A DNA stretch of 63,233 nucleotides, counting the filler, from Rhabdomonas costata (Eukaryota): the NCBI GenBank assembly GCA_019059605.1. It is 53 parts of 53 records of this genome, joined end to end, with 100 filler letters (N's around TTAATTAATTAA, not from the genome) between each part and the next. Parts side by side here need not be neighbours in the genome. Positions count along the whole stretch, not along the records: positions 32,267 to 33,361 come from JAHMHO010028881.1; positions 33,462 to 34,556 come from JAHMHO010028882.1; positions 34,657 to 35,751 come from JAHMHO010028883.1; positions 35,852 to 36,946 come from JAHMHO010028884.1; 49 more parts are not named here. One strand, given 5' to 3'. Under the pieces are notes generated by a model. It saw only the letters and a list, made by a program, of their open reading frames with translations, was not told where the DNA came from and ran no database searches. This document shows positions 16,574-58,453 of the stretch, one piece after another; within the stretch, counting starts at the first letter, position 1, and each line of letters begins with the position of its first letter. Made by a program: the position numbers and the translations under genes.

Positions 16574-17402
16574 CGAGCCCTGCAGTCTTTCTTCTCACAA
16601 TGGCGTTGATACACATTTACACCCTACTCTTNNNNNNNNNNNNNNNNNNNNNNNNNNNNNNNNNNNNNNNNNNNNTTAATTAATTAANNNNNNNNNNNNN
16701 NNNNNNNNNNNNNNNNNNNNNNNNNNNNNNNAACTGCACACACTCATATAATCTTTCTCTGAAAAGCCGCAAAAAGTCATGGAGGGGATAGTAACAGCGG
16801 TGGGGATCATCGTAACCCATCTCGCCGTTACGCTTCAAACCAAACGCCGACGAAAACAGATGAACGGCTCGAGTGACTGGTTTGACTTGGGCATCATCGA
16901 TCTCTCAGGATGAGTTCTGGGGAGGGTATAGCTCTTCGACTGCAAGAAGCATGCAGAAAAGGGTACGCAGATCGGCCTTCGCTTTGCAACATAGTTCCGC
17001 GTTGAAAACGTCATGCAGAGTTGGGAGAGGAGGGGGTTGGGAATCCAACGTCCGTTTTGCTTGGGGTAAAGTCTCTCAATAAAAAAGGCAGACACTGTAA
17101 GCGTACCCCGAAGGCTACCGCTACTGAAGAGAAAGGAGATACACAGCTCAGCCACAAATCAACAGGGACCACAAACTACAGTGATGCTGCGATATAATAA
17201 GGAAATAAATATTCGGAAGGAGAAGATATGGTGTGGAAGGCGTGCGTGACCCTCCTTGTTGGGGGAGCATTCCAGGGGCGAGAGCCAAGCAGCACTGCCA
17301 AGGATATGAACATCAAAGCCGAGCTGCGGATTCGCTTGCAAAGGTTCCGAGGCAGCCCTTGCCAATTCAGTTAGTTCGCGGTTGCAGTTGGGGCCCACAC
17401 AC

Positions 17403-17590
17403 CAGATGTGCAGGTCGTGGACCTCGGCCACGCCCTTGACCATCATCAGGGTCTGCTCGACCTCCTCGGAGAGGATGTTCGCCGGGGTGCTCTCCATCAG
17501 CACCAACACACTCTCCTTGAGGATCGGGATCGTCGTGAAAACCACCAGGATGGAGAACAAGAAGGTGCAGATCGGGTCGAAGTACCACAT
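17403..17590 (-). CDS. CDF/SLC30 zinc transporter exon (TM6 and cytosolic domain)
   Basis: WYFDPICTFLFSILVVFTTIPILKESVLVLMESTP...VKGVAEVHDLHIW; DPICT and HDLHIW are ZnT hallmarks. Confidence 0.92.
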
Positions 17591-19363
17591 CTTTGAGGGA
17601 GAGGGGGACACAAGGAACAAGGCCCTGATATAATGGTGTCTCAGTTAATTCACACAGTCCAAAAATGTTTACCCCCGTTAACCGCTCGACGGCGATAAAC
17701 GTTTAAACGACATGGGACACTCAACTGCTGGCGAGGGTGAAGACGGGACTGCTCGTTTGTACGTTTATCGCCGTCGAGCGGTTAACGGGGGTAAACATTT
17801 TTGGACTGTGTGAATTAACAAAAACANNNNNNNNNNNNNNNNNNNNNNNNNNNNNNNNNNNNNNNNNNNNTTAATTAATTAANNNNNNNNNNNNNNNNNN
17901 NNNNNNNNNNNNNNNNNNNNNNNNNNGTGGTGGTTGTGTGTCGTGTATTTTGTGTTTGAATGTTTACTTTCTATGTCGTGTATATCGTTTGTGTATGTCG
18001 GAACCGCCCCCGTTTCGACATACACAAACGATATACACGACATAGAAAGTAAACATTCAAACACAAAATACACGACACACAACCGACATACGAATATCAA
18101 ATGCACAATCACGAACAAGAACCAAGAGCAAGCCCGACTGCATCTATCAAAAAGCATAATACTCTAAAAACAAAACCCGTTGGTGTTGAACCGGCATGGG
18201 GGCCGCCAGAGTTCCAGCCTGCAATTTTCTTTCCCTTTTCGAGGAGCCTAATGGTGGAGAGGTGCGTGCATACCGCAAGCCCTCCACGACTGGCGCATCA
18301 CAGCTCCAAAAAATCTAGCTAAGTGCTAAGTACAAAGAAGCAAAAAAAAAAAGCCGACCTACTTAGAGCAATTTTTATGGCACCCCATGAGAGATTTTTA
18401 GCTTCTGCTGCATATCCCACCACTGAGCACTCGTGCAATCCTTTTCCCGAGTTGAAGGGTTATTCGTTCGGGAAAGTTTCCAGAGCGAAAAGACACATGA
18501 GGTTCCGGCACTGCTTTCTCCAAGGCGTGTTCCAAGAAGTCATACCAGCAATGCTGGAGTCATCAATGGGTCTGCAGCAAGCGACGCTAAAGTAGCACTG
18601 CCCTGAGCCACGGCATGGCAATTTTCCTGCAGGCGCAACCTTTGATCAAAGGGGAAAAGAGGCCGAGCGAAATAAGAAGCTTTTTTTGCAAGTCCCGATA
18701 CTTGAACCACTCGATTGCCTACTAACTCGGGTATACCAGTGGGTCACATCGGGGTGCTGTGCCCCATCGTCGCCGATCTTGTGAATGGGAAACCATGTGA
18801 GACAGCAGATGTGACAGAACCGCGGCCCCTTCAAGCACAAAGATAACGGGACAAACGTTTAAAAGTAGAGGTCTGCAGTGACAACCTTGATGTGTGACCC
18901 CAGGGTCACGAGTCCAACATGACTTGACTTCGGAAGGGCACGATGATTGCCTGGCAGACCCCAAAGGAGTGCCTGATAAGCCAGCAAGCCTCTCGTGCGG
19001 GCAAGCATCTTCAACAACACANNNNNNNNNNNNNNNNNNNNNNNNNNNNNNNNNNNNNNNNNNNNTTAATTAATTAANNNNNNNNNNNNNNNNNNNNNNN
19101 NNNNNNNNNNNNNNNNNNNNNGTGTGGGGGTGGTTATAGTCAAGGATAAGTGACTGTTGGCCGCACTGTGCGTGCTGGTTTTTTCCATGAAGTGTGATGC
19201 GTGTGACTTTGTGCTGTTTGTGCATTCGTGTATTCTGTGTGTCCAACAGTAGGCGCGGTGTTCTCGTCAACCGCTCTTTGGGTTCGAATAAACCAGAATA
19301 AACCAACTGCAGCTCTGGCAAAGTTCCCATTCATGTTCGCACGCAGGCCTCCACACAGACCGC

Positions 19364-21109: not shown

Positions 21110-22080
21110 CTGTGAAGGGGCAACCCCCAGGCTTTTTGGTCAAGAATCAAGGTAGTTCCAACACGGCTGACACGAAAAGCCCGGTGGAAAGGCAAAAATC
21201 GCTGTAAAAGCTCAGAGGCCTTTTCACTTTTGCAACGTAATACATCAGAAGCAGGTGGGATCCTTCATGTTACGCTGCTGAGAAACCCACCAAATGAAAA
21301 AAATCTCCTCGGAAATTCAAATGTGCGGAACTCGTTCGATTCGCTGCAATGCTTTACGATATATGCATCGAGAATCCGCGAAAACTAGCAGAGTGGTCAC
21401 ACCCACCAACCNNNNNNNNNNNNNNNNNNNNNNNNNNNNNNNNNNNNNNNNNNNNTTAATTAATTAANNNNNNNNNNNNNNNNNNNNNNNNNNNNNNNNN
21501 NNNNNNNNNNNAGTTGAAGCTGCAGCAAACCGTAGTTCAACGCGCTGTCGGGGCTTTTCGAGGACCGGCACCAATGGAGGGTCAACTTTTTGTGGGGTGC
21601 TTCGCATCTGACATCGGAGGATGGGTGGGGTTCTGGGTGTGCTAGGTTTGGGATCACGTGATGATGGACGTACTGGATGTACTGGATATACTGGATGTAC
21701 CTTTGTGTGGGAAGGCTAAACGCAATGTGTTTCCAGCTCCTGAAGCAAAACGATGCAATATGTCGGTTTGCTATAGTCACGGGGGGAGTAGAGCGAGGGG
21801 TGGGGGGCACCTCCGTCACCCTATCCCTTTCCACCCGAGCAACAGCAACCCGCCGAAAAGACACCTATCTCAGAGATTTGATTCAGGGCGAAATGTTGGG
21901 CAAAATCCCGACACACAAAGCAGATGAACACCTTGGGACCTGTGCACGCCCTGGGACACTGTGGCGTTTGGATGCTCTGCTTGGGCATGCCCTGCTCAGC
22001 ATGAATGGTGCGAAAAGATCATTCCCCTCTCTGCGAGTTCAGTGTGAAGAGGGGATATTTGGGGGGTGATCCTTTTCCAG

Positions 22081-22212
22081 GTGGACGGCCACGGGTCCGT
22101 TCTTCGCGACCTGGCTGCAGCAGAGGCGACGCTGCGGCTGCAGATCACCTACCGGGAGGCCTTGCGGCAGCAGGAGAGCGGTGAGCGGAGCTTCCTGGAG
22201 AAGCTTTCGGAG
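22081..22212 (+). CDS. Coiled-coil exon with E-x-x-x-R repeats
   Basis: ttccag/gtatct-bounded 44-codon exon VDGHGSVLRDLAAAEATLRLQITYREALRQQESGERSFLEKLSE. Confidence 0.55.
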
Positions 22213-22752
22213 GTATCTGTGGGGCTATTTTCGGGAGCGGTGTCTGCTTTTGGTGGGGAGGGGGCGGCGGAGGTGTTGATTGTTCCGAAGAACTGCGTAG
22301 ACCAACGGTTTTGGTTTTGGCAGCTGGCTTGGAAGCAGATGGGGTGGGGGGAAACGATCAAGGATGACATGTAGGTGCCTGAGTTCATGGGAGAAGGCAT
22401 AAAGGGGCCAATGCGTTCAGTATGCTTAACGTCAAAAGCCAAAAATTTTGCATGATCCCTACCCATGGTACGCCACTTCCACTTCATTTAGCTTAAAAAA
22501 AATGCTTTCCCAATGGATCGCAAAGTTCCATAGTCCAAAAACCCCAAACGCTGTTAAACGTTTAGCGCCCCCCACCCCTCCAAAAAAACCCAAACACACC
22601 CACCACNNNNNNNNNNNNNNNNNNNNNNNNNNNNNNNNNNNNNNNNNNNNTTAATTAATTAANNNNNNNNNNNNNNNNNNNNNNNNNNNNNNNNNNNNNN
22701 NNNNNNGGGCGGGGGGTTTGGTGCGGGGCGGGTTGGTGTTCACAAAGTGCAC

Positions 22753-23919: not shown

Positions 23920-24950
<1,031 letters not shown>

Positions 24951-26954: not shown

Positions 26955-27568
26955 GTGGCTTGTTCCACCCCCCCCCACCCCGTGGACTATGCAACTGTTT
27001 TTCTTTCATCTTTTGCCTACCCTGTTCTCATCATCCTCATCACCCAACTGGTTTCACTATCGGACTTTTTGCCCAGTGTCTTCAACTAGCTCGATGTTTA
27101 CAACGAACAGGCGACTTCAGCGGTTTGAGGTCTCCAAATCCCTAGAATGCCCAGCGCAATGTTTGGATGGTGAGACCGCTGCAGTACATCTGCAGCTGTG
27201 CATCAACAACAGCGTCCGCATCAACAACAGCGTCCGCATCACTATCACAGTGACGCATCTTTAACATTCATGTAGAGGCTGGGATTCGGCTTATCTCCGC
27301 TCTGTCGTCTGTCGATTCTCCCCTGTCATCTCCCCACCGTCCCCACCGCCCCATCCTCCTTGAAGCACGACCGTGGACCACAAACANNNNNNNNNNNNNN
27401 NNNNNNNNNNNNNNNNNNNNNNNNNNNNNNTTAATTAATTAANNNNNNNNNNNNNNNNNNNNNNNNNNNNNNNNNNNNNNNNNNNNGTGGGGGGGGTCAA
27501 GACAGAATAACATTCCGGAGGTAAAAAGAGAGGGAGAGAGAGACAGAGGTGTACAGGCCATCGCATAC

Positions 27569-28278
27569 CAATGCAGCAGTCGCTCTGCTGGCAGCTCTGC
27601 GTCGCGCAAACCGTGCTGGAGGCCTTCGCGGTGTACCCCGAGGGGCAGCTCACTGAGGCGCTGCCGCAGGTCGGGTTGGCTGTGGGGCAGATCGGAGCGA
27701 GGGTGAGGGACCGCGGCAGGATGCCATGTCTCCATTTTTCGGAAAACCCAATAAATGCTCAATAGATGCTGTGGATAAGTCACCACACGTAAATCGCCTT
27801 TTCATATGAATTGTCAAGCTCCCCGGAAGGGACCGGAACGGACGGAAGTGCTGCTGGTTGCGGAAACTTTCGAGAATCAGACAAACCTTCAGAGTCGATG
27901 GTACGGCATTTAAGAGTTCCCTTCTTATTGCCTATTGCTGTGGGTTTTGCTCTTTCCTCTCAATCAAGCGTGCACGCGAGGCAAAAGAGTTCAAGGGTTC
28001 CCTTCCACCCAGAACCATGCCAGAAAAGACCCAAACAAAAAGGGTCGGAAAATTAAAACCGCATTGGATAAAAAGGGGAAAGGGCAGCGAAACACAGGCG
28101 GGGCGGGCATAGGAGTGCAGCACACAAAAACAGAAACAGGTAATAAAAGTGCAACGGTGCGCAAGGGGCATACGAATGCAGCAGTCGCTCTGGTAGCAGC
28201 TCAGCGTGGCGCACACCGTGCTGGTGGCCAGGGCGGTTGTGCCGGAGGGGCACGTGAACGAGGTGCACGTCGGGTTGG
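27569..28278 (-). CDS. Cys-rich repeat protein, one 6-Cys module per exon (exons 28278-28174 and 27679-27569)
   Basis: NPTCTSFTCPSGTTALATSTVCATLSCYQSDCCI and NPTCGSASVSCPSGYTAKASSTVCATQSCQQSDCCI; both are phase 1-1 exons (105 and 111 nt) flanked by cag/gtatgc. Confidence 0.85.
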
Positions 28279-30088
28279 CTGCACAAAGGTAATCGCAAAA
28301 GGAATTGCCCGCACACTGCTCAACTCCGCAGCAACTCGCTGTACAGCCAGAAACTTGTGAAGACCACCAGAGCGCCAAACCCATTGTGGTGACCACACCA
28401 AAACAGGAGGCGTTTGTAATTTTGGGGTGACCGGGATCACGATAAGGATGCAACGACCGCAGAAAAAGTTCGGAACCAGCCACCCGAAACTTTGTTTGGG
28501 ACGTGTAGAAAACGCCGGATCTTGGGTCACTCTTCTGCGGTCGTTGCATCCTTATCGTGATCCCGGTCACCCCAAAACCACNNNNNNNNNNNNNNNNNNN
28601 NNNNNNNNNNNNNNNNNNNNNNNNNTTAATTAATTAANNNNNNNNNNNNNNNNNNNNNNNNNNNNNNNNNNNNNNNNNNNNTGGGTGGGCTTCTGCTGTG
28701 GGTTGGGTGGGTCACTGGTGTTGGTGTTGTGTGGCTGGTGGGTTGGGTGGTGGGCGCAGGAGCGTGGAGTGAATGGGGTGACTTTGGGGCTGTGTCTGAG
28801 GCAGGGTAGATGGAGTGGTGCTGTGAGGTGGTGGGTGACTCTGGGGTGGGATTCTGGACTGAGGGTGTGTGGTGTGTGTCGGTCTCTGCGACCTCCGTTT
28901 TGGTGATTCTGGCTGTGGTTTCTGGTGTCACTTGTGATGTCTAAGATGAACCGTGCCCCTTGGGATACCTCAAGAACAACAAGGCTGCGTACGGCTATGC
29001 CTACTGTCCCACTCGCTACTTCCGTGCTCCACAACATATCGACGATAGTTCCCAGTGTCCTGAGTGGTACGGAGACGTCCCGAAGTTCAACGCCTGTCCA
29101 ACACAAACCATATGATGACGCAGGTACCACGGTGAGGCTATGCAACGTAGCGCGAAACTCAACACCTGAGGTTGTTCGTTAGTAGTGGTTAGAGGCGAGT
29201 CAGGTCATCACACCACAGGTTGGGCAAGGTGGTGTGACCTCTGATGGTGGAGATGAACCCTCACCTGTAGCGTGGGGTAGTAGTGCTGGGTAGGTGATCC
29301 AAGGTCGACCTGCTGTGGGCCCGCGAAACCCACCGTAGGGAACAATAAACCCACTCAACCCACAGGACGGAAGTGATGAAGGTAGGTGGCTAGCGGTGAT
29401 GGTGCAATGCCTTCCTTCATCCCACTGTGCCCGAGTCACGCATTCCATGGCAGTGGTTGAGGTGACATAGTGACCGGTGATGGCGTTATGCATAGGGAGT
29501 ACCGTAGTGTAACAATACCCTACGCGTAACCACCCACAGCATAACGTCAACACTCAAACCATGTCACCCGAACCCAGCGATGGATGTCGCCCACCCGTGG
29601 AAGTAGCGCTGATGGTGGTACGGTACACACAGTGCACAGTGCGCTCTGACTCACCCTCCACTTCCAACGCCGCAACCTGTGACATAGGTGAAGTAGTGAG
29701 AGAGGGAGGCTGATGCCGCTACATCCCACCACCACCGCTACCACAACACGTTGGGAGTAAGAGTGCAGGGTGAGGGNNNNNNNNNNNNNNNNNNNNNNNN
29801 NNNNNNNNNNNNNNNNNNNNTTAATTAATTAANNNNNNNNNNNNNNNNNNNNNNNNNNNNNNNNNNNNNNNNNNNNGGTTTGGTTTCTTTGAAGGCCTGC
29901 AAGACCCTTGCAACCAGGCTCATGCAGGCCTTCAAAGAAACCAAAATGCAGCCCGGGTCCTTGGAAATGAGGGCAGAGAAAAGAAAGGGGGGGGTGTAAT
30001 TGGCGGCGCTCGGCGTAACAGGCCCTCGGGTCAGTCCGGTCAGGCTTCGGCGGTCCGATTGAAGAGTCGGGGGGTCATTTCTATGTAG

Positions 30089-30807
30089 GAGACAAAGAAC
30101 CTCACGGAGTGGTACACTGACGCCGAAGGCCACCCCGTGTCGTTGTTCTGGACTCGCATTGCGCTGGGCTCGTACCGGGACTGGTATCCCGTCAACGAGA
30201 GTGATCGGGGTTTCTCCACGTGGACCCCGCAGTACGTGTGGTACGGGCGGCTTTGGCTGACCTACTACACAGGTCTGTCGCCCCATCACCCTACCCCGCA
30301 GTCTCGCAGCGCTGTGTACTGGTTTTTGTTCCCTCTCCGTCTTTGCTCTTGGAATGGAGGCCGATGGCAATTATGAGTCATTCCTAAGAGATGGCGTGGT
30401 CGCTTGCGGAAACGACCTGCGTGTAAGTGTCTCCCGTTCTCCCTCCTGGCCTTCGTTCCACACTGCCCGAGCGCCAGCATATCCCAAAACCTTTCCCTTC
30501 CCCATGCACTTCATCCCTGCTTTTTGCGCTGCACCGGTTTCCATTTTTATCCGCTGTCATCTCTCACTTTTCCCCAACAGGGATTTACTCCCCGGAGTGG
30601 GAGCTGCTTGGAGTGACGGGCTCGGACCTGGAGCTGGGCTTCCTAAACAGCATCCTGAAGGGCTTTGGGTTTGTGCCCGGGTACAGCGTGTACGTCCTGG
30701 ACGTTCGCTTCAGACGGCTTGTGGCCAGCTATCCTGCCTTACCCACCCTCGTCAGCTCCACGGGCACCATGGTTGAGCAAGGGTGCCCAAACGGGACCCT
30801 CTCTCAG
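30089..30807 (+). CDS. dCache-like extracellular sensor domain (exons 30089-30272 and 30581-30807)
   Basis: SYRDWY...WTPQYVW...LTYYT|GIYSPEWELLGVTGSDLELGFLNSIL...SVYVLD...LVAS follows the dCache_1 consensus order; the phase-1 intron keeps the frame. Confidence 0.75.
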
Positions 30808-33185
30808 GTCCCACCCTCCATCCCGCTCTCTCTCTCTCTCGCGTGTCATTGCTCGGCCAAAAAGGCCGAGAAACGGCCCAAACCAGCCCGAAAAATCCCT
30901 CTGGCGTGGCTCCAAACCGAAGCGTTCCGTCCCCCTCCAGTGCCGGCGTATGGAGTACTCCTCGGCTCTCCNNNNNNNNNNNNNNNNNNNNNNNNNNNNN
31001 NNNNNNNNNNNNNNNTTAATTAATTAANNNNNNNNNNNNNNNNNNNNNNNNNNNNNNNNNNNNNNNNNNNNGTGGTGGGTGTGTTTGGTGTGTTGTGGAC
31101 AAGGGCTTGGGCTGGGCAGACAAGCCTCCCTTGGATGGAAAAGGGCAGTCTAACGGTGTGCCCCACCGCCGATGATGATACCACTGTGGTTAGGCTGCAT
31201 GTCAGGCACTTCAGTCCAAATGAAAAGTAGCGTTCCCGTTTTCACCGGTCCGTCGATGATGTTGTGGTGGATGCTCGGTTGCCGGCGGAGCGACAACCAA
31301 TATTTTCGCGCGTTTTGTCGTCGCAGTATTGAATTCTGGACTTTTACTCTTGACTGCTTTGAGGGGGGGGGCAGCGCTTTTTCAGATTTTTGGGTAAAAG
31401 GTCGTGCTATATGGTTCCTCGTTCCCCAACACAGATAGAATTGTTTCTACACGCTTCTTCTTCATTTTGCAAATAATACTCTGTTATATAAAAAGGTGTG
31501 TTTGTGCTTAGGGGTAAGAAATTGCGCATAAGCAAAAAAACAACCTTCATTCCGAGTCGGGGAGCAGTGAAAAGATGTCGCTGCGGCGACATGCATTATC
31601 GAACATTAGATGAGATACGGGATGAAAAGGCGGCTGGCAGAAAAATCAGACTCAACAGGGTGTCCCTGTTGAGGGGGGCTTTTCCCCTCCATATACAGAG
31701 GATCGTGTGGTCTCGGGGTTGAGCTCGTCGAACCGCTTCCTGCTGCTCTCGGCGTACCTTTGCTCGTACAACCCCGAGGCGTCCAGCGTTGGGGGCCACG
31801 GGGGTGCCCGGCGCCCGCACTTCTCCGAGGCGGCAGTGCCCCACTCGCTGGCAGGCAAACGGGGAGTTCTGAACAAGGAGGTTCGCCGACCTTCCAAAAG
31901 TTCATAGTGCCATTGTGCCCGTGAGAAAACACTCATTACGTTGAATTGTCACTGTTCAAAATACCCCAAGGGCAAATGACGCAACCATTCCCTCATCCAC
32001 GTTCACGAACGCACCTTCATGGGTGCGGCAAGAAGGCAATTTACAACTCACAACAGAAAGGACAGATAAAGCCCAACGCGAACAAGCCATGACAACCTGT
32101 GAAACAGATATGTACGCGCATAGATATGTGAGCACGCGTGCGCGCGCGCGCGCAACCACACACCACNNNNNNNNNNNNNNNNNNNNNNNNNNNNNNNNNN
32201 NNNNNNNNNNTTAATTAATTAANNNNNNNNNNNNNNNNNNNNNNNNNNNNNNNNNNNNNNNNNNNNGTGTGTTAAGGTGGGGTGCAAGACGCTCAACATG
32301 CCTTTGCTGGTTACGGAGACTGTGGCGAAGCAGGTTCGGAGGATTCGTCTGTCTTTGTTTTTTTTCTTTGTGATGGGAGTTGGGGGAGGGGGCAGTAGAA
32401 CCACCCAGTAAAATCACCAGGAAGTGGATGGTTTCTTTCCGGGGCTTCTGTGTTCTCAGAGAGCAAATCTCCTGTTTTCTTGGTTTTCTGATGGTATTCT
32501 TTTTAGAGAATTTTCATGCACAAGTGGATTTAACGTAACCTCCCCCGCGAAAAAGAAACCGCTTTTTCTACACAGCTCTGCTTTTTACGCGCACACACAC
32601 ACCTGGGGAAACGTGCGGAGTAGATGTCTTGTTTTCTCTTTCATGGGGTTGCTGGGCCTTGTTGTACTTGTGCATTCGTCTTTGTTTGGGCAGAACGGGG
32701 AAAAGATTTGTAAATCGCCTTCCTTGCTGTTTTCAAAAGGTTTTTTTGGGGGGAGGAATGTGCTTGTTTTCTGTGTGGTTTATCAGGTTGAGTGTCACAT
32801 TCAATGCCTTCCTGCGGCAGTGCTGCGCTACCCCTCGCCTGGAGTGCTGCCGTGCTACCGCCCCACCCATGAGTTCGCCACCACATCTATCGATCAGGTT
32901 TGTAAGTCTCGCACCCACATAGCGTCGCATCCCCTCTCCGTCTCTCCGTGCTTCCTTTTTCTCCCAGACGTCCGGCACGATCGCTAACGGCAAGAAATCT
33001 CCCGCTTCTTCACTGGACACTCCGCGCTTCACGATCAAACCGCCGAAATGCTCGTGCTGCTTCAGCAGCCCACTTCTATGCCTGGCTGAGTCCTGCGGAA
33101 ACTTCCATGGGCCGTTCTCTGCGCTTGCGAAGATATGGTCACGTTCCGGCCACCAGTCAGGGTCGTGCGTGCTACCTCCCCACAG

Positions 33186-33345: not shown

Positions 33346-34773
33346 CCTTTGCCCCCAACCCNNNNNNNNNNNNNNNNNNNNNNNNNNNNNNNNNNNNNNN
33401 NNNNNTTAATTAATTAANNNNNNNNNNNNNNNNNNNNNNNNNNNNNNNNNNNNNNNNNNNNGGGGGTTTTTATGCTCTTCGCGGGAGAAGTGATGTTTGG
33501 GCAGAGGTAGCGGTAAACGAACGGAGCAGCATACATCTGTTTCGGTTGTATCCGAATCACCAATGCGCTGGACCCGTGATGTCCGGTTCTGAGGGCATTT
33601 TTGAATTACCTTAAGTTGGCATTGCTAGTCGTCTGAATGGGACCACGCCAATACCTTCTGCTTGTTCAAGGTGGAAGGAGGGACACACTGTCATGTATGA
33701 CTTGCACTTTGCTGCGGGAGAAATTCATTGGTTTGCAAGGGCTGAAACTGATTGAGTGCGAAGGTTTTGGGGTGTTCAACTTTTGACGTTGTCATTGCCT
33801 TGATCCTTCCAGCGCATCTCTGCCTCTGCTCACTGTAATACAGCGGAATAAGAACCACCCAAGCTCCTTGAGAAAATCTTGGTTTGCAGCTTTCGGTTCC
33901 TCGGGCATAGGACTCAGTTAGGCTTGCAATGCATGCGCGTGCAGTTAGGCTTGCGGCGTCACCTCTGTATCTCACCCTCATCTTCTTGAACTTGAGCAGC
34001 GAAAAGGCGATGCAGGATCACAAGTGCTTGCATTAATTTCTTGGCAGGACAGTGTGCTGGGTTTTTAGCATGGTTAGCTGTGCCTGCTCTGTTGGTTCCC
34101 ATGGGCTGTGCCACATGTGGTTTATGAGAGTTCCGAAACCAACTCTCTTTCACCATTCTTTCTGGCGTTTTTCTTTAACCTTTGTGGGTTCTCTTTTTTT
34201 TCTTTTCAGAATTTCCCTACTCGCCATTTGTATCCCATACCGTGTGCCTGTGCTTTGTGTGCCGATGTGTGTTTCCTGAAAGAACCCCACATTGTGTGAT
34301 ATGTCCATGGCTTGACTGATTTTGCGTCCCAGTCCCCACCGAAAAAAGCTCTAGTCTGAAAAAACCTTCCTCCCCGTCAACCGCGCCTCTCCCCAGGGGG
34401 ATCAGAGGTGGCCAGCAGAATGTTTGCGCCTCAGAAGCAGCGTCCACATCGCCGGAAGAAGCGCGGAGTGGCCTCGCGGTACCGTCCTGCCGCCCCCGTC
34501 AGCATCCTCCCTGAGGGCTACACCGACGGCGAGGGCGACGGAACGGACACCAAAACNNNNNNNNNNNNNNNNNNNNNNNNNNNNNNNNNNNNNNNNNNNN
34601 TTAATTAATTAANNNNNNNNNNNNNNNNNNNNNNNNNNNNNNNNNNNNNNNNNNNNTTTTGGGTGTAATTATCTTTACTCATGTTTCTTATTATATTTCT
34701 GAATATGTTTACAAAATATACTCAAAAACATAATCAGAAATATAATAAGAAACATGAGTAAAGATAATTATAC

Positions 34774-35430
34774 TCAAAACATAACTAGACACATAAGTAA
34801 ATGCCGGAAATGAGCATGGCCTTTGGCCATGCGAACCATAAACATATTTAGGTACTTTAGTACATGTATATCAAGATATGATAAGTTATATATTTCATAT
34901 TCTTTATCTGCTACTAAATCATATGGGTTATATATAAATTTAAGTGTTGTTACTTCTTTTGATGGTTTTACAATTACACAAGATCTTATAATTCGTTTAT
35001 GTAATAATTTACATATTTCATCTACATTTATATTCGTTATTTCATAACAATTATCTTCTGATATATTCGATTTTATTATTATACCTTTATTATATATTTT
35101 CTTTCTTCCTTCCGACATATAACTACATATATTATTCTTTTCTGTATCATGATCATGATCATGTTCAATATCATGTGAAGGATCACAGTAGCACATTTGA
35201 TACATTTCATTTGCAGTTTCATATATATCTTCAGTTGTTCCTGTTAATTCAGGTGTCATATTCAATATTTTTATAACATTATTCATAATTTCATCTTTAG
35301 CAAATTCTTTTATTTCTATAAAATCCTTTATATAGTCTTTAAACATTAATTCATCTGTAAATAATAAATCTTTTTTATTAAATTGATCTATTGTAAACTT
35401 ATTTTCACGTATTATTCCAATTGCATACAT
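34774..35430 (-). CDS. Intronless AT-rich hypothetical protein, giant-virus-like
   Basis: 218-codon ORF in very AT-rich DNA with I/K/N/Y/D-rich composition unlike the host exons; the last ~30 aa may be chimeric (adjacent fold-back). Confidence 0.75.
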   Translation of the reverse strand: MYAIGIIRENKFTIDQFNKKDLLFTDELMFKDYIKDFIEIKEFAKDEIMNNVIKILNMTPELTGTTEDIYETANEMYQMCYCDPSHDIEHDHDHDTEKNNICSYMSEGRKKIYNKGIIIKSNISEDNCYEITNINVDEICKLLHKRIIRSCVIVKPSKEVTTLKFIYNPYDLVADKEYEIYNLSYLDIHVLKYLNMFMVRMAKGHAHFRHLLMCLVMF

Positions 35431-35510
35431 TATTATTTGTTATATTTTTAATATCTTTATATATTTAAATTTAACCAATTGTGATTGCTATCATACTAAA
35501 CTTTTTTACA

Positions 35511-35660
35511 ATTTTTATTTCTTCAAATCTTCGAAATTATGATTTTATTTCTTCAAATCTTTAAAATTACAATTTTATTTCTTCAAATCTTTAAAATTAC
35601 AATTTTATTTCTTCAAATCTTCTAGATTATGAATTTATTTCTTCAAATCTTTGAAATTCA
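35511..35660. repeat. 5 x 30-bp tandem array with invariant 18-bp core TTTATTTCTTCAAATCTT
   Basis: Units start at 35511, 35541, 35571, 35601 and 35631; the 12-nt variable parts resemble each other. Confidence 0.95.
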
Positions 35661-35673
35661 TAATTTCAAAGAT
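35647..35673. terminator. Perfect 12-bp-stem hairpin ATCTTTGAAATT-CAT-AATTTCAAAGAT
   Basis: Hairpin seen directly; the terminator role is inferred from Mimiviridae hairpin-directed 3'-end formation. Confidence 0.35.
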
Positions 35674-36541
35674 ATAAAAATTTAATTATATTTTACTGTT
35701 CAAAATGAACTAATTTATTTAAAAATATTAAATTGTAATATAAACAACACANNNNNNNNNNNNNNNNNNNNNNNNNNNNNNNNNNNNNNNNNNNNTTAAT
35801 TAATTAANNNNNNNNNNNNNNNNNNNNNNNNNNNNNNNNNNNNNNNNNNNNTCACCGCCTCTTTCAAAGCGAGAGATGAAGGATGATGCGGCTGGAGCGA
35901 ACAGATTCCATCGCTTGCGTCCGCACCATGACCAACCCTGCCACTTCTGCTATGACTGCCACCGCCTGCCGGAGAACGGGCTTATCGTCCCTGCAGGGCA
36001 CAGCTTAGCGGTGGTTCCCGAGTAAACGTCAGCCTCGAGGGACAGAAACACGAGAGATCCGAGCCAATGCTGGCACAAGATTTGGTAGTTGCGGGTTGGG
36101 GAAGAGCTTACCTCAGGCAGGGCACGGGACTGCCAGCCATGCGCTAGTGTGAGGTTGGGATTGACGACGACAACTGTCCCGCCGAGGTCCCGCCGCGTCC
36201 CGGCTTTGAGAGCGCGGCCAGCTGGCTCCAGTTCGCCAGAGAAAAAAGCGTTGTGGGTGCCGTCGGTAAACCCGGTAAACCCGGCACAAAAGGGATGTCA
36301 AGGGCTCACAACCTGCCGAGGGTGAAAATTCAGAAAATTATTACCCCAAGGACCGGCCACGCAGCGTTTCGGGAGGCCTCTTGTATACAAAAAACCCAGG
36401 CACCTTGGACAATCATTCCGCAAGCGTTCGAAACGCCAACTCCGGAACTCCGGAGTGCGCAAGTATCAGAAAAATCCGCACAAATTCCGAGACCAGAAGC
36501 ATTTTGTCCTTTTGCCGCGATCATTGTGATATTGCACCCAG

Positions 36542-40524: not shown

Positions 40525-43058
40525 CCCCCCANNNNNNNNNNNNNNNNNNNNNNNNNNNNNNNNNNNNNNNNNNNNTTAATTAATTAANNNNNNNNNNNNN
40601 NNNNNNNNNNNNNNNNNNNNNNNNNNNNNNNCACTCCCCCCCCCCCTCCTGCTCCTCAGCTGCCGCTGAGGTGCCCTTGACAAGCAGATGGCAGGCCAGC
40701 TGCCCCGTTGGAACTGCATCCGCAGTCCTCCTCACACCCATCTGTACAAGCGTGTTAATTATTGTGTTTCTTGTGGTGTCAGCCGGGAACCACTCGTGTT
40801 CTGGAGTCTCCCGGTGCAATGAAGAGTGCGAAACCAAAAGTAGTGGTGTGGGTTTCGCTTCGTTTTTTCCGGCCTTGCGCCCCCCACCCAAACCCAAACC
40901 CATCCCCTTTTCGAGGACACTCGACAGGAAAGATATTCCGATGCATCGGTTCCTCTTCACACCATGATCGTTGGATGGAGCTAGGAGTGTGCTCCCGTGC
41001 AGCAGCCTCTCCCCACTTCACCTTTCTCATCCCTTTCATCCACTACCGCTACTCTGTTTTCCTTCTCATTGCCTTTGTCTCATTGCCAGCCGCTGTCCGT
41101 CTTCCCAAATGTAGCTCTCCCTCGGGTTGAGCATGGCGCTCCCCAAGAAGCTTTTGTAACGTTCCGCTGTGTCTCGAGTCAGCTGTCAACCGGAAGCAAG
41201 TGGGAGGATCATCCTTGCCCTGGATCTACTGTTTGTCTCGAGTTTTTACTCTGTGTAGCTTCATTGTCTTCGGCGGGCGGGCGGGCGCGGGTGTGGATGT
41301 GCTTTGTTCCTTCATCACATGGACATGGGTTGCCGTTTGCATGCCCCACGTTCCTACACCTCCTTTTTGCATTTTTCCAAATATCCCTCCGTCGGTTGCA
41401 TTCTTTTCATGGGTATAGGGCATGCTTTCAATGGGTACAGGGGACTTTAGGCTTCAAACCCTCTTGTACCTTGACGTTCGAAGAAACCCCCTGCGAAGCT
41501 TTGACCTCGAAGAAAACTGTCACTCGATACGACTGCGAAAACAGAATGACGCAGGTGCGGTTGCACCTGATGGGGGGGGGCGCCGCTCGTGTCAGTGGGG
41601 ACCCTTCGACCTCCATTGAAGGCACACTACAGCCACCGAAACCGCGCTCATTCGGTGGTGACACACTGGATTAGCCATGCTGCGCTAGCATACCCTCTCA
41701 AGCGAAGTATTCTGGTTCACCCAAACNNNNNNNNNNNNNNNNNNNNNNNNNNNNNNNNNNNNNNNNNNNNTTAATTAATTAANNNNNNNNNNNNNNNNNN
41801 NNNNNNNNNNNNNNNNNNNNNNNNNNGGGGGTTGGTGGGGAGCGCCAGAACCGAAGTAGCAAACGGCATCGACATGGTCGCTTCCAACAGCAACAGCTGT
41901 AATCCAAGGAGACCAAACAGGCTATGCAAAAGCGTTGCGAGCTTCGTGTCGCAAGTCATCCGTTAACTGCAACCAAAATTCCACATCCCGGAGTATAAAT
42001 AAAAATAATAATCTCTGACGTTAGCCGTTAACCGAAGGTTTATGCCCAGTTGCATTACAACAAGCCAACTCTCGTGCGAAGCGACGTGGTGTAAGTACAC
42101 ACACGCGAACAAAACCCAGCACAAAATGTCAGCAGAACGGACATGCGCATGCGCATGCTGTGGGCCTGCCCAACAAACTTCGTTGCGGGAGAAAAGGCAT
42201 CCCTAAAGCCAGATCAAGGCTCTAATACCACCTCAAAAAAATTTTCGAAAGTAATAATTTTTAATCACAAAATACTATCTCCCTTTTGGAGGCCGAAGCC
42301 GAAGCGCCTCGGGTCTTTATTTTTGACTGTGCAAACGTGGTAAAACGGCTGCTGCGAGGACTCCCTGGCCGTGGCACCCTTTTTTAGCAAATATTCTGCA
42401 CGATAGAAAGCAACTTCTCAGCGAGTTACCTGACGTACGCTACAGCTTGAGAGATCGTTTTTTGTTTTGCCTGAACACCCTATAAATATCAACCACCACC
42501 AAGCAACGAGCACCGCGCACGTGTACTTCCCACACAGCCGAGAGAGCAGTCAAGGAGGTCAGCGAGAAAAGTCCACATGTATTCGGGAAACCGAAACAAC
42601 GAATTGTCACAGCCAAGCCCAACCCAAGAAGCTACGTGATCAAGCGATGCTCGTAAAGGTCTCCGCAGACGCGGGCCTTCATCTTATTCACCGCTCCATG
42701 ATGACTGCGGGGGCCTGTCACCACACCGCGCCCAGAACGCGGATGGCGGACCGCTGCACTCAGAAGGCTGAGGAAGCAGTAACGGTTGACGTGCTGCCTC
42801 CTTTCCAGCCCATGGACGCGACCAAGCTGCCCGATCGGCTAGCACTGGCTGACCGGATTGGAAACGTTATACACAAACATAGGATTGCTACGGCCCATGC
42901 GCACAGGGTCAAACCCCAACANNNNNNNNNNNNNNNNNNNNNNNNNNNNNNNNNNNNNNNNNNNNTTAATTAATTAANNNNNNNNNNNNNNNNNNNNNNN
43001 NNNNNNNNNNNNNNNNNNNNNGGGGGTTGGGACAAGACATTCTCTGGAGGGATGCAAC

Positions 43059-43481
43059 CTGCTTGTACTCCTCTTCCGTTGGAACCTCACAGCTTGCATC
43101 CCTCCAGAGAATGTCTTGTCCCTGCCCCCGATGCAACAGCTCCATTTCAGCACGGTAGGCTTCCACTCCAGCTGGCCTGCCCAGCTTACAGATCTGCTCA
43201 AACGCAAGAAAGTACACTAGATTGGCGCAGTTCAGCGTGGAAGGGATCCCATAGATGGAGTGAGCCACAGGGATCCCTCGTCTCATCCGACTGTGACCCT
43301 CAATATCTTGAATAAGCACACTGGCACTGTGCAATTTATCCACAATCTCTTTTATGGTGACCACCACAACAGCGGGAATCTGCAACCAGCGATTGACCGC
43401 ATCAATCAGCATCCACCGCAAGCTCTTTCCAGGAACCGAGGCGATGTGCTTAAAAGGTTGCATAAGGTCCTCGTCAGACAT
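43059..43481 (-). CDS. Geranylgeranyl diphosphate synthase (GGPS1/BTS1-type) homolog with degenerate first Asp-rich motif
   Basis: PGKSLR, LHSASVLIQDIEGHSRMRRGIPVAHSIYGIP, LHRGQGQDILWRD, PTEEEY; residues after about YKQV come from a fold-back artefact. Confidence 0.92.
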
Positions 43482-44290
43482 TATACACGACGCCCGACAA
43501 AACCCTCAAAACAGGGCTGAGGGAAAACGGAAAGAGTTTTGAAAGTGAGGTGGTTCGTGGAGCTGAAAAAATGTTGTTCAAAGACGAAAGGAGCAGTGGT
43601 CTGTCTCCCCCTCCCTGGTGATGGCATTTTGCATGCACACTTGATGTTTTTTGACCAACGAAAAACCACAGAACAACAACGTGACACCATCACGAAGTTG
43701 GAGGTCATTCTCCATAAGCGAAACACACGACTATGCACGTGCAAAAAAGCGTATCATAAGACAACGGCACTGTTTTCGGGATCAGACTGACCAGAAAGCA
43801 GACACGATCAATTCCAGAAAAAATGACAACTTGGTGGGTATCTCACACACGGCACCCTCATCCAAATGGAGAGCAGTAAAAGCAGCGCGGATAAACAAAG
43901 AGCCTAAAAGTGGTACCGTTAGAAGGTACCGCCCCAAGACCACCCGAAGACAGAGGTCATTGCGGGATGGCATAGAACAAAACACCTATTGCACAGCAGG
44001 ACACGAGAGCAAAGGCTTTGTAAAAAGTCAAGGACAAAGAGGTGAATAGCGTCTCGTGCCACACGAGCAGAAAAAGAATTGCCCAATTGCGCAGCAATGA
44101 GCAACAGTTTAAAACCNNNNNNNNNNNNNNNNNNNNNNNNNNNNNNNNNNNNNNNNNNNNTTAATTAATTAANNNNNNNNNNNNNNNNNNNNNNNNNNNN
44201 NNNNNNNNNNNNNNNNTGTTGTTTGGGATCGACAGCCACAGGCCCCAGGACACTGATTCGTTGAGTCACGGTTCCCCGCTCTGTCTGTAG

Positions 44291-46375: not shown

Positions 46376-49300
46376 CTGCAGCACGCCACAAATGAATCTG
46401 GTCACCATCCATTGCCAATCCGGAGCCTCCGCCCCTTGGGCGCGGCGATGGAACCCCAAACTCTCATGGAATCAAACCGAAAATAGCCTGGAGCATTACC
46501 CACCAAAANNNNNNNNNNNNNNNNNNNNNNNNNNNNNNNNNNNNNNNNNNNNTTAATTAATTAANNNNNNNNNNNNNNNNNNNNNNNNNNNNNNNNNNNN
46601 NNNNNNNNGTGTGGGGGTATAGTTCATATCAGCCAATGCTCATCACCCAGGCAGCCTGCCAACGTGATGAGCATTGGCTGATATGAACTATACCCCCATT
46701 TTTTCTGCAAAATTTGGGGGAGCGGGGGTTTGTGCATTTTCCCTCAGATTAGGTGAAATGAAACATTGCGACAGGTGGGCTCCACTTCTAGCCAGTTATA
46801 TGAGATGGAGCCAACTCTATCGGCACTTTTTTTTTTGCCCCTATGGCCTTTTTTGCAACCTATGGCATTTCGAAAGTGCGGTGAGTGTACACGTACGTGA
46901 CGGACAAGCAAGACGAGGTCTGAGAAGCAGGAGAAGCAGCCGAGAACCTGTAGACGTGGAGCTGTAGACCTTCGAATAATCCTCAATTCGAGAGGTGCCG
47001 GCGTCGTACTGAGGAAAAAATGCGAAAGGGGCGTGTCAGCAGCCCGTCTGCACGGCAACCCCCCTCGAGGCACAATCTGACTGACCCTTCCATTGGGGGA
47101 AGGGGCGGGCAATCAAACCATTTCCACGCTCCCTGGCAAAAACGCCTGATGTTTCGCTCAGCGCAGCGTGCCAAAAACACAACAAAAGTCGTCAATGATG
47201 CAGATCGATATAAGGAAAGTCCTCCCTTAGCGCTGTAGCCTACACATTTCTTAGGCATGCCCACAAAGAGGAGGTGCCTTCTGCGTCTGGCAGCACAAAT
47301 GGGTAGGAAGAGGTGCAGGGAGAAAAGAAGAGTGCATTGAGTTTTTGGGTTTGAGCGGCCATGGGTGTGCTGAGCGAATCGTTCACTGGCTGACGCGAAA
47401 CCAAAACAGAAAAGTGTCATCGAGGAGGATTGGTCCAGGATGACGGAGGGAGAAGCAAAGTCTTCATATGTCACTATATAAAAACTCCAGAAGTCTCCAT
47501 GTAAAGTCTTTGTCAATGACACTGATTGCGACGCTACCTAACAGTCAGGCAATACTGCTATTACACACTCACTCTTATCCCGATCACAAACATACATACG
47601 AACGCACGGCATCCTTCACTTTCGCTTTCATTACTGGTCTCCTAACAGCGTAAGGGTGGAATTTCCTGCACACTCAAGCCTGGACCTACCCTCCCCCCCC
47701 CCCNNNNNNNNNNNNNNNNNNNNNNNNNNNNNNNNNNNNNNNNNNNNTTAATTAATTAANNNNNNNNNNNNNNNNNNNNNNNNNNNNNNNNNNNNNNNNN
47801 NNNCATGCATGTGATACGCTTTAAACGCTGCCATGTTACTGAGGCTAAAAAGCACGTGTTCTGAGTTTACGGTGTAACGTGCTAAATATAAAAAATTTTG
47901 TGCAAGGGGGTTAGGTAAACTTTGCCAGTGCCCTCAAGATGATGCTTTGCTAAGCAGCTGCAAACTGGTGCTGGCTGAGGACTCGCAAACGGCTGGGATA
48001 CGGTCGGACAAGTAGGACAGCATTAGTTTAGGGGCGAAGGCCAGTCCGCGCCGCAGCCGGAGTGGACGGGTGGGGCGGGGGGCTGAGACAACTTTTTTCA
48101 AATATGCTCCCATAGTAATAATTGTCACTTCTTAGCGTTACCACTGCGACCCCCCCCCCCAACTTCCATTGCACATTATAGTCAGTGGCTGGAGACCCCG
48201 CGGTACAACTTTGCACACTGGAGGAATGCCTACAGTGCGGACCCTTGCCAACGCTGCATGCTTGTTATCACAAGGGAGCCCAAATGATCTCTTAAGACCA
48301 GGGATCGGTGGGAAGCTGGATACCAGCAACCACGAATTCGATATATGGGTACCAAGACGAGCAAATAGTAACTCTCCTTATCTGCACATCTCAGATCCGT
48401 AACCCCGCAGCCGCATTCTACCTGAGAAGTATTATGGCTACTGAGGCAAAAAAAACTCGCCCCTGTAACTGGCAGATTTTAATGCGCGTCATCCTCCGGA
48501 ATTGCCTCCATTTTCTTCGAAAAATTGGAAACCACCGAAAATAGTTGGGTACCAGCGTCAGTCCGCGGCAAAGGACACCAACACCCTTTTCCGCACCGTC
48601 CTCTCGACAGCACAATTCTTTCGGTGCGTTCTGGTGCGTCCGCCTCATTACAGCGCCGCAGCTTCACGAGCCAACAGAGGGCCATACTTACCGCAAGACG
48701 CGGCACCCCGATTCCCTTCCAGGGATGTTCCTGCTTTGCCCCTTTTCAACACCGCAGGCAGAGGACATCATCGATGTCTGAGTTCCCCTATGTGAAGCCC
48801 CGGCGGAGGTTGGACTCTGCGAGGATCTCTGCCCTGCACAGCTCGGAGTGGGTCCCCGCAGGCCCTGGAGCAGCCTCACCCCCGCATCGGTCAGNNNNNN
48901 NNNNNNNNNNNNNNNNNNNNNNNNNNNNNNNNNNNNNNTTAATTAATTAANNNNNNNNNNNNNNNNNNNNNNNNNNNNNNNNNNNNNNNNNNNNGGTTTC
49001 CTGTTTTTCTACTTTTTTCTTGAAGTGTGGTTTGACATATTTCCTGTAGAACGGATTTCAGAAATGAGTGGGCGTTGTGAAGGAGGTTAGCCCGCGGCCG
49101 TGGTCCTTCGTATCTGATCTGTCTGCGATTCGCTTTTCTGCTCGTGCGATCCACTGTTCTGCCATCCTGCTGTTGGATGATGAGGGTGTGGGTGTACACC
49201 TTGCCTGGCCCCCGTCATTTCCACCCTTACTTAGCAAGTTCTGTCCACAGCCGACGGTTTCCCCGTGCGCGTACGGTATCTCTCCCAGGTTGAGCCCGTC

Positions 49301-55100: not shown

Positions 55101-57420
55101 CGATCACGCTGAAGGTGCGTAGGTTACGTGCGCTCCACAATAGCACGTGCGTATCTCGTTTTTCCGCTTGCAGTGTTGTGGACGACTCCAGCCACCTCGG
55201 AAACCTGTGAATAGCGGGAGAAACTCTGATAAATATCTGATAAATATCGAGGCGGAGATGGGGTAGGCTATCCTGTGTTCCATTCGCTGTTCGTCGTTGT
55301 CAAATGGCGCTCGCGTGGTACCATAGGGCACGTGGGTTCACCATTCGACAGTGCTGGTCACTGTCGAGTTTCCACACACGCGTGCACCTGAACCCCGGTC
55401 CTTCCTCAAGAACTGTACGAAGATTGCCGATCGTCTCTGTGGCCGTCAGCTGCTGGTTTGTGTAGTGACGTTGAAAGCACACCCACCTCTCAGGTGGCTG
55501 CTGGTCAGCCGGAGGGAAACAAGAACAACCTTTCTCGGTTCCCCTTGACGGTCTCTGGGCTCACCGTGCAGCCCCCGGGCACCACCCGCCCGGACAGCGC
55601 CTACGCCGCCACCGGAACCCCGAACACAGGCCCGGCCCTTTCTTTTTTCCCTTCTTCTTTCGATGGATTGACCTAAGCATTTGCTCCGTGGGCTGCGTTG
55701 ACTCATAACCTAAGCACAACAGCGGTTCTGCGTCGCTTTTACCAGTCCCTTCGGTCTGGCCCGTTCATAATGTTCGTTCATTTTTACGCTGATTGATGAG
55801 CGATGCCCTTCTTCTGCTTTCGTGGAGCTTCGTGCATTGCATACACACACAGGCACTGCAGAAACGGGAAGTGAAAGAAGGATGGCCTCGTGCTTCTGTT
55901 CCTTCTGTTTGGGGTTCTGGTTTTGTCGCAGGAACGTCGGGCCGTACCCTGCGCAGTGGGCTGTCGGACCGACTGCGGGCCCTGATGGACGACCATGAGG
56001 CCCGGCTGAAGCTCCTCGAGAGCCAAGACAAGAGCGTGCTGCCGGTGCCCAGGCACCCCAACANNNNNNNNNNNNNNNNNNNNNNNNNNNNNNNNNNNNN
56101 NNNNNNNTTAATTAATTAANNNNNNNNNNNNNNNNNNNNNNNNNNNNNNNNNNNNNNNNNNNNGTTGTTTTTTCTCGCATTGGTTTGTGGTTTCCCCAGC
56201 TGAAGCGTTTTTTGGTTGGCTCGCAGACGCTTCTTTTTCTTTTTTGCAAAGAGTCTTTGAGTATCTGCTTCTGCGCTTCTTGGATATCTCTGTGTCATTC
56301 TGCGTTTTCTTCTGGTCCTGATTTAGCGTGTCTTCTTTTAAATTAGCGAAATTGCGGGAGGGTAGCGGTCCAGTACGGAACCCGTTTGGGCTAAGGCTTT
56401 CGGAGATACTGTGCCCCTGATGTATCAGCTCGCCCTATCTTCCTGTCCCTCCCGAACATTTTTGTCGGTGCTTTCGCATCGCCCCATGGATCTACACACC
56501 CTGGTGTTGCTGTGATTTCTCGGGTCTGATTTAGTTCTTACTGATGGAGCTATTGACGGTATTGCCTAAAACTGTTAAGTTGCTGTCTCATGTGGTCTAA
56601 AATTGCCAGGCAGCCCGTGATATCGTTCGGAACACAATTCAAAAGGTCAACCGACCTTTCCATTCTCACTGCTAGTAAATGGGAACGCCGCCCAAGCAGT
56701 TGTGCTCCTCTGTACCGGACAGCTACAGGACGGGCAGTCCAGGCTGCTATTAAGACGGCTCAGGCTCGCGTGCGAAACCCTTTTACTCCTCCACAACGCA
56801 AAACGGTTTTTTCGGTGAACCCATCTTCGTCCGTCATGGCGGTAATTTTTAGCCCCGCTACACGGTGCGAATAACTTTTGCCCACACGGCGCGGTTTCCT
56901 GCGGCAAACAGCGCGTGAAGTTAGCCTTAAATTTTCTTTTCCCCAACCTGCCTTATCACCGTTAACTGCCCCTTTTCACCTTAAGCTGCCCCTTCCCTAT
57001 GCCGGCGTCTTGAGAAAAAGGCGCCTTTTGCGACGAAGCGGTAACCGGCGTCATAGCCCAGACCTTCCCGAAATCCCGAAACCTCCCGGGAGAAAGTGCT
57101 GCCACCTTTCTGCCCGCCATCAATTGATTTCAATGTTTCAAAAACGCCCGATGGAAATTTCGTTTCGGCCAACTGCCCCACCCCTGACCCCGCTCAAGAA
57201 ATCAGGTGTTTCACGTTCTGCCTTGTTTTTGTACACATTTGTTTGGAGGGTGTTCACANNNNNNNNNNNNNNNNNNNNNNNNNNNNNNNNNNNNNNNNNN
57301 NNTTAATTAATTAANNNNNNNNNNNNNNNNNNNNNNNNNNNNNNNNNNNNNNNNNNNNGTTTTTGGTGATGATGGTTTGAAAAAAAGTTGTATTTTATTA
57401 TTTTATTTAAACAAATATTG

Positions 57421-57834
57421 ATGAATTTATTAAAATTAAATAATAAAATACAACTTTTTTTCAAACCATCATCGCCAGAAATACAAACAAGTACAGTATA
57501 TAAACCATACGATTATGAAATAATAGATAAAAATGTTTCATCTGACGATACAGTAATTAATCAGTTAATTGATAATTATGTAAATATATGTTTTAATAAT
57601 GAACTTGAATATCCAAGAACAATTATAAATTGTAACACTGAATATTTTATTAATCAAGATCATATACTATTAAATAATTTTCGTTTACTAAAGAATTTTG
57701 AAGATATGTATAAACCAAATATGAATGCTGTTCTAAAAATAGGTAATATTTTTTTGTGTAGAGTTAAAGTATCTATAAGTACAGATCAGTCCATTAAAAT
57801 TAACATATCTGGTAATACAGTATTTGACAGTTAA
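57421..57834 (+). CDS. Intronless AT-rich hypothetical protein, giant-virus-like
   Basis: Open frame rich in N/I/K/Y; the region upstream of ~57405 is a fold-back arm. Confidence 0.65.
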   Translation: MNLLKLNNKIQLFFKPSSPEIQTSTVYKPYDYEIIDKNVSSDDTVINQLIDNYVNICFNNELEYPRTIINCNTEYFINQDHILLNNFRLLKNFEDMYKPNMNAVLKIGNIFLCRVKVSISTDQSIKINISGNTVFDS

Positions 57835-57981
57835 ATAATACTATTTTTATTATAAAAGAAAATATAACAATTGATATTTTAATTTTAAATATTTAAAAAT
57901 ATAATTATTTTTAAATATTGCATACTAAAAATAAAAAAATATTTAATTTATTAAAATTAAATTTCTTTGTGTTATACATAT

Positions 57982-58453
57982 ATGAAACGTCGTGAAATGG
58001 AATACAAAATTAAGAAATACAATGATAAAATCAATAATTTATACACTTTACACGGTGGAGCCGATGCTGCTTATAAAGAAAAATGACATACATTGAGACA
58101 ATATATAGTATTGTGACAAAATTAAATTCTTATTTTCGTTATAGTGAAATACATATTCCACAGCTAATCGATTTACTAACAAAAACTGATATAGTGAAAT
58201 ATAATGAACAATTACCACCAATACTTCATACACTAGAAAAATATAATAAAATAATTTTAAGTATAAGAGATGATAAAAAATTAACGCAAAAACAAAAAGA
58301 ATTAGTACAGAAATGTGAAGAATCATTATGTCCAGTATTTAACAAAACCTTTTTTCCAATTAAATATGAAGAGTTTAAAGAAGAACAAACAGTGCCAAAT
58401 AATATTAAAACATATAAATCACAATTAAGAAGAATATATGTAGAACAAAAAAA
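57982..58453 (+). CDS. Giant-virus-like protein split by a 1-nt frameshift at an A-run (57982-58086 and 58083-end)
   Basis: MKRREMEYKIKKYNDKINNLYTLHGGADAAYKEK* overlaps MTYIETIYSIV...; one extra A in GAAAAATGAC fuses them. Confidence 0.6.

Follow-up and report, generated by a model that had tools for sequence, protein, structure and literature searches.

An AT-rich contig from a Rhabdomonas costata library as a probable fragment of an unsequenced Mimiviridae-type giant virus

How does DNA with a guanine-plus-cytosine (GC) content of about 21% come to lie in a library whose main source is a eukaryote with about 52% GC, and does it derive from a giant virus? We addressed this question in a 63,233-base stretch from the Rhabdomonas costata assembly GCA_019059605.1 (hereafter the window), which is not one locus: it consists of 53 contigs, each of 1091–1097 bp, with N44-TTAATTAATTAA-N44 spacers between them. 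Positions 34657–35751 are exactly one of these contigs (~1095 bp) and carry an open reading frame (ORF) of 218 amino acids. The original prediction assigned this contig to a Mimiviridae-type giant virus. Our results indicate that it is probably a ~1.07-kb fragment amplified from the genome of an unsequenced giant virus of the Mimiviridae type, whose nearest relatives would be the klosneuviruses, CroV and Bodo saltans virus (BsV), and that it carries a putative AT-rich promoter region and part of an uncharacterised viral gene. The contigs beside it are unrelated pieces of one library and provide no genomic context. The extreme AT richness that had been noted is evident from the comparison with the rest of the window: the contig has 21.2% GC, a second one (57359–58453) has 20.6%, a single contig has 39.1%, and the other 50 range from 45.7% to 59%.

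The 218-residue protein and its family

The gene is defined by the following features:

34774–35430, minus strand: ORF of 218 amino acids, the N-terminal domain of an uncharacterised family of klosneuviruses, CroV and BsV
34837–35430, minus strand: family-homologous part of the ORF, residues 1 to ~198, delimited by profile match and alignment

The ORF is rich in I, K, N and Y, as originally described; these four residues make up 35.8% of the protein. None of 2000 mononucleotide shuffles matched its 221-codon stop-to-stop frame (the longest reached 127 codons), and GC content falls over codon positions 1, 2 and 3 from 36.5% to 21.9% and 14.6%. Because of the shuffle result and this gradient, we conclude that 34774–35430 is real coding sequence.

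Several searches with the window ORF itself gave little. Pfam returned nothing at an expectation value (E) ≤1, DUF3846 included, the best PHROGs match had an E of 0.12, a word-indexed protein search produced no matches, and the ESM Atlas contained no usable match. A phmmer search of 1.84 billion representative proteins identified 170 relatives at E≤1e-3, 46 of them at E≤1e-10, the best with an E of 2.8e-20 and 34% identity. Two long repetitive proteins among the listed matches (P0091 and P0144) were left out as spurious before alignment; the family alignment contains 150 sequences, i.e., 149 relatives and the window ORF. The relatives are mostly 300–370 amino acids long; over ~200 residues at their N-terminus they align with the window ORF, beginning at the first residues of the latter, and share conserved blocks with it (for example MME..I..LTPEL.GDT..CYE....YQ.C). 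Of the 150 aligned sequences, 81 carry a MYND zinc finger at the C-terminus (PF01753, E≤0.01), as did 13 of 16 in a first sample. One sequence homologue carries a source name: P0024, 'Hypothetical protein KVN_LOCUS314 [uncultured virus]', encoded on a 649,991-bp contig. Word-indexed searches with family alignments gave 4 and 1 proteins. Querying the ESM Atlas with a full-length homologue (P0005) returned eukaryotic MYND clusters only, which reflects the finger that is absent from the window copy.

Structure prediction connected the family to named viruses. Folded without an alignment, the ORF gave an unusable model (predicted local distance difference test score, pLDDT, 33.9). AlphaFold2 with the 150-sequence alignment yielded a model with a pLDDT of 88.1 and a predicted template modelling score of 0.84, with low confidence only past about residue 200. 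A structural search of BFVD with this model returned seven matches at E≤1e-3, and the top six (E 1.9e-19 to 2.0e-9; query-normalised template modelling score 0.55–0.79) are all uncharacterised proteins of giant viruses: A0A3G4ZV31 (Edafosvirus), A0A1V0SGG0 (Hokovirus), A0A3G4ZZ11 (Gaeavirus), A0A5K0U7K4 (Yasminevirus), E3T5D1 (CroV) and A0A2H4UUY2 (BsV), that is, proteins of five klosneuviruses and of CroV. The N-terminal domain also bears a weak structural likeness to phage DUF3846 (PF12957) proteins (Foldseek E 2e-3 to 1e-1) and to the HEN1 La-motif C-terminal domain (3htx_A, E 0.09, probability 0.99). The Hen1 La-motif C-terminal model (PF18441) was touched below its cut-off by 7 of the 150 aligned sequences. 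At the sequence level the window ORF matches neither DUF3846 nor HEN1, and DUF3846 is absent among the Pfam families matched by the 150 aligned sequences.

Full-length members combine a conserved alpha/beta N-terminal domain, whose fold is distantly DUF3846-like and weakly similar to the HEN1 La-motif C-terminal domain, with a C-terminal MYND finger. The MYND finger is a protein–protein interaction module. Full-length members may be adaptor proteins that recruit their partners by way of this finger, and the window copy, which has no finger, may be inactive or act differently. A literature search combining MYND with giant viruses or Mimiviridae, or using KVN_LOCUS, found no publication on this protein family. 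The analysis defines an unstudied family common to klosneuviruses, CroV and BsV, with a DUF3846-like N-terminal domain and a MYND finger.

Judged from the best identity of 34%, the virus would not be any of those sequenced; such divergence is usual for accessory genes of giant viruses.

Amplification artefacts and the truncated gene

The 3' part of the gene lies in a region that is shaped both by the amplification of the library and by a local change in base composition. The features concerned are:

34657–34666, plus strand: primer-derived G/T-only tail, non-biological, recognised by the excess of G/T runs at contig ends
35742–35751, plus strand: primer-derived A/C-only tail, the complement of the G/T primer, recognised by the same tail statistics
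34667–34702, plus strand: foldback arm, a perfect inverted copy of 34734–34769, an artefact with the same architecture at 9 of 106 contig ends
34734–34779, plus strand: inner foldback partner, genuine template, holding the ORF stop codon (34774–34776)
34803–34838, no strand assigned: GC-rich island with the perfect palindrome GCATGGCC-N3-GGCCATGC at 34814–34832

A G/T-only run of at least 9 nucleotides (nt) begins 68 of the 106 contig ends, compared with 1.1% of random internal positions; the tails are G/T-only at 5' ends and A/C-only at 3' ends (for example at 31072–31098 and at the 3' ends of contigs 7176–8269 and 21512–22606). At five ends, a constant G/T sequence has survived ahead of 10 G/T positions. 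PMC10781638 quotes a primer for single-cell whole-genome amplification that consists of a constant G/T part and K10NN; its constant part differs slightly from that in the library contig ends. We conclude that the library was amplified with a K10-type, G/T-only degenerate primer of the design quoted there. Given the G/T tails at contig ends, the outer 10 nt at both ends of 34657–35751 are therefore primer-derived.

The largest inverted repeat of the contig pairs 34657–34710 with 34726–34779, has 54-nt arms that are 94% complementary, and begins right at the primer tail. This arrangement (a 10-nt tail, a perfect inverted repeat of 15–64 nt and a centre of 15–68 nt) recurs at 9 of the 106 contig ends, 7 of which belong to contigs of 48–59% GC: 3588–4683, 16732–17826 (3' end), 17927–19021, 27487–28581 (3' end), 29877–30971, 43022–44116 and 46609–47703. 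In the outer 10 nt of these foldbacks, the arms differ only where the terminal copy has been changed to G or T. The 54-nt terminal inverted repeat is an amplification foldback and not biology. A terminator following the Mimivirus 'hairpin rule' was considered for this repeat and rejected in view of the like foldbacks at the seven normal-GC contig ends. The most striking hairpin of the contig, with its 54-nt arms, is hence a library artefact; a hairpin accompanying the repeat array, as described in the original prediction, is present at 35640–35680 (see below). Hairpins at the contig ends of this library are G/T-primer artefacts and should not be taken for viral terminators or telomeres. The second AT-rich contig, 57359–58453, begins with the same kind of foldback.

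The window copy of the gene is truncated, comprising only the N-terminal ~198 residues of the family as delimited by the profile. The 366-position family profile, to which the window ORF itself contributes one of 150 sequences, matches the ORF at positions 4–195 with 180.9 bits. The rest of the family, i.e., the central segment and the MYND finger, is absent in every frame of the contig and in the other window contigs. Family homology stops at ~34837, exactly at the GC-rich island 34803–34838, which lies within DNA of 79% AT. The remaining ~20 codons (residues 199–218, 34777–34836) are unlike the family, and the stop codon comes next. The palindrome GCATGGCC-N3-GGCCATGC inside these last ~20 codons, 8 bp and GC-rich, forms the strongest local hairpin. 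The island has no second copy in the window, and a 33-mer from it had no exact match in the genome contig collection. Insertion of a small element, recombination that left a scar, or the junction of a chimera could each account for it. Accordingly, the truncation is either real (a short paralogue, a pseudogene or a small GC-rich insertion) or a second amplification chimera; we moderately favour a real truncation. For BsV, PMC5871332 reports many coding sequences disrupted by rearrangement.

The rest of the library bears on the cellular background of the contig. The other contigs are mostly non-coding, and 2 of 99 long ORFs have a Pfam match (Peptidase_C1 and polyprenyl_synt); the closest PDB relatives of these two are cathepsin L/papain-type proteases and eukaryote-type geranylgeranyl diphosphate synthases, respectively. 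The former, at 24205–24672 (minus strand), is an exon-like fragment of a papain-type/cathepsin-L protease that covers only the first ~60 domain positions; the latter, at 43023–43505 (minus strand), is a fragment of a eukaryote-type geranylgeranyl diphosphate synthase. The mostly non-coding contigs and these eukaryotic protease and synthase fragments show that the library is eukaryotic genomic DNA, dominated by a eukaryote of ~52% GC. An origin of the library from a transcriptome was rejected, with just 2 of 99 long ORFs matching Pfam and both of them exon-fragment-like. The two longest ORFs of the contig of intermediate GC content (4784–5879, 39.1%) had no Pfam match.

Upstream region and second AT-rich contig

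The DNA between the start codon and the distal primer tail contains the following elements:

35431–35741, minus strand: upstream non-coding region, 311 nt, 14.5% GC
35513–35666, no strand assigned: 5.1 tandem copies of a 30-bp unit, 87% matches
35640–35680, minus strand: AT-rich hairpin at the array's distal end, with a 12-bp perfect stem, 6 further pairs and a 3-nt loop
35508–35515, minus strand: AAAATTGT within AAAAATTGT, 85 nt upstream of the ATG, agreeing at 8 of 9 positions with the CroV/BsV early motif AAAAATTGA
35569–35576 and 35599–35606, minus strand: further AAAATTGT copies inside repeat units

The AT-rich intergenic DNA with a repeat array that had been predicted is thus present. 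Read in the sense of the ORF, each 30-bp unit is made up of a stretch of 16 constant nt and another of 14 variable nt. The 122-nt region around the hairpin at 35640–35680 folds just slightly better than shuffled sequences (z −1.6; 15 of 200 shuffles as good).

The ORF strand carries three copies of AAAATTGT, located 85, 146 and 176 nt upstream of the ATG. In mononucleotide shuffles the mean was 0.34 copies and three copies were reached in 0.5%; two of the three observed copies lie within the tandem repeat, and those two are therefore not independent. The early motif AAAAATTGA of CroV and BsV is taken from PMC5871332. Early motifs of Mimivirus are placed within 150 nt upstream in PMC5294985, and AAAAATTGT at −85 falls inside this range. 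The gene may be transcribed by a viral polymerase from the A/T-rich upstream region by way of the AAAAATTGT element.

The second AT-rich contig, 57359–58453 (20.6% GC), contains three close-packed, co-directional ORFs (57421–57834, a 34-codon ORF from 57983, and one that starts at 58083 and runs to the end of the contig); an ATGA forms a stop/start overlap among them. Scans of the ORFs 57421–57834 and 58083–58451 gave no Pfam match above the cut-off and no PHROG better than E 0.07. This contig may well come from the same virus as 34657–35751.

Origin of the contig and comparison with known viruses

For the recognition of Mimiviridae, PMC6163669 names core genes (major capsid protein, PolB, packaging ATPase and others) whose phylogeny assigns a virus to the family, promoter prevalence, hairpin palindromes at the 3' ends of genes, and closest relatives. 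The closest relatives of the window protein are Mimiviridae, by way of the top six BFVD matches and of P0024 on its 650-kb uncultured-virus contig. All named members of the family, namely these six BFVD matches and P0024, are giant-virus proteins, in agreement with the original prediction. Promoter prevalence across genes cannot be shown here with one gene.

Several observations weigh against a giant-virus origin. NCLDV (nucleocytoplasmic large DNA virus) hallmark genes, the core genes of PMC6163669, are what the original prediction would have low-GC contigs of the assembly contain; they were looked for within the window and none was found, where 99 ORFs of other contigs and three on the AT-rich contigs were scanned with Pfam. 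The low-GC DNA of the window amounts to 2.2 kb in only two contigs, and the absence of hallmark genes there means little. A source name is available for a single sequence homologue (P0024), and the other ~150 have no taxonomy. BFVD holds viral proteins only and cannot show that the family is absent from cellular organisms. The window ORF does not have the MYND finger typical of many full-length members. A PDB fold search with the model gave no match at E≤1e-3, and no solved structure backs a function. The canonical early promoter AAAATTGA has no match in either AT-rich contig; what stands upstream of the ATG is the one-base variant AAAATTGT, and the tandem repeat exaggerates how far its count exceeds chance. 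The promoter evidence is weak. With the foldback artefact removed, no terminator hairpin is left behind the stop codon. Finally, the other contigs are eukaryotic, and their euglenozoan affiliation was not confirmed.

An alternative source is a cellular eukaryote, either an AT-rich contaminant with its own MYND-linked family member or a eukaryotic genome with an insertion derived from a giant virus (endogenous viral element). It is mainly in eukaryotes that MYND fingers occur, the Atlas clusters nearest to the full-length homologue are eukaryotic MYND proteins, nearly all sequence homologues come without taxonomy, and truncated genes are frequent in degraded insertions. However, the Atlas matches reflect the MYND finger alone, which the window copy does not contain, and every named relative is a giant-virus protein. 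The GC gap of 30 points to the main genome and the absence of any junction with higher-GC DNA within the contig speak against a long-resident insertion in the library's main genome. The ORF packing and the ATGA overlap of the second AT-rich contig represent a gene spacing that is not eukaryote-like. We therefore regard a cellular eukaryotic origin as unlikely.

Much less room is left for an AT-rich bacterium or endosymbiont, a phage, a plasmid or an organelle genome, a very improbable source that is largely refuted. A GC content of 21% and intron-free, dense coding are also found in reduced endosymbionts and organelles, and the N-terminal domain is distantly like phage DUF3846 in structure (Foldseek E 2e-3 to 1e-1). 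Nevertheless, no relatives were detected in one genome each of 185,579 bacterial and archaeal species (GTDB), a scan sensitive to close relatives only, tblastn of 50,697 phage records and 72,556 plasmids gave no match to the window ORF, and the best PHROG match had an E of just 0.12. Scans of the whole window found no tRNA, no Rfam RNA and no rRNA, and 81 of the 150 aligned sequences carry a MYND finger. The refuting outcome named in the original prediction, best matches to AT-rich bacteria, organelles or another eukaryote, thus did not appear in these searches. Equally remote as a source are the smaller mobile elements that accompany giant viruses, among them virophages, polinton-like viruses and transpovirons. 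Such elements have the same AT richness and make use of their giant virus's promoters, according to general knowledge and PMC6163669, but the homologues that bear a name lie in the genomes of CroV, BsV and klosneuviruses and on a contig of 650 kb, far above virophage size.

A fragment of a Mimiviridae-type giant virus is accordingly our preferred reading. A bolder version of it would make the source a hitherto undescribed and deeply divergent klosneuvirus-like virus inside and infecting the ~52%-GC eukaryote, i.e., a new virus–host pair, with the gene a natural MYND-less paralogue behind a tandemly multiplied, early-promoter-like array, cut by a GC-rich palindromic insertion of a kind undescribed in giant viruses. 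We consider this combination doubtful. Giant viruses of heterotrophic protists with a known host are very few, and a viral fragment co-amplified with the DNA of a eukaryote is a cheap pointer to a possible association. Taken alone, one truncated gene on ~1 kb of DNA is nothing unusual in single-cell or environmental data.

The preferred giant-virus reading can be set against the known relatives at the level of both protein and genome. The six named viral proteins share the N-terminal fold of the window ORF (Foldseek E 1.9e-19 to 2e-9) and, like it, have an AT-rich, I/K/N-rich composition, whereas they are 296–356 amino acids long compared with 218 for the window protein and are 12–23% identical to it. 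With respect to BsV, as described in PMC5871332, the contig differs in having no genuine palindrome after the stop codon once the foldback is set aside. Both have an A-rich word containing AAATTG upstream of the gene; the contig motif AAAAATTGT ends in T and that of BsV in A. Repeat-rich non-coding stretches of the kind reported for BsV in PMC5871332 are likewise found in contig 34657–35751. Furthermore, BsV has a GC content of 25.3% against ~50% in Bodo (PMC5871332), much as the contig, with 21%, stands beside a eukaryote of ~50% GC.

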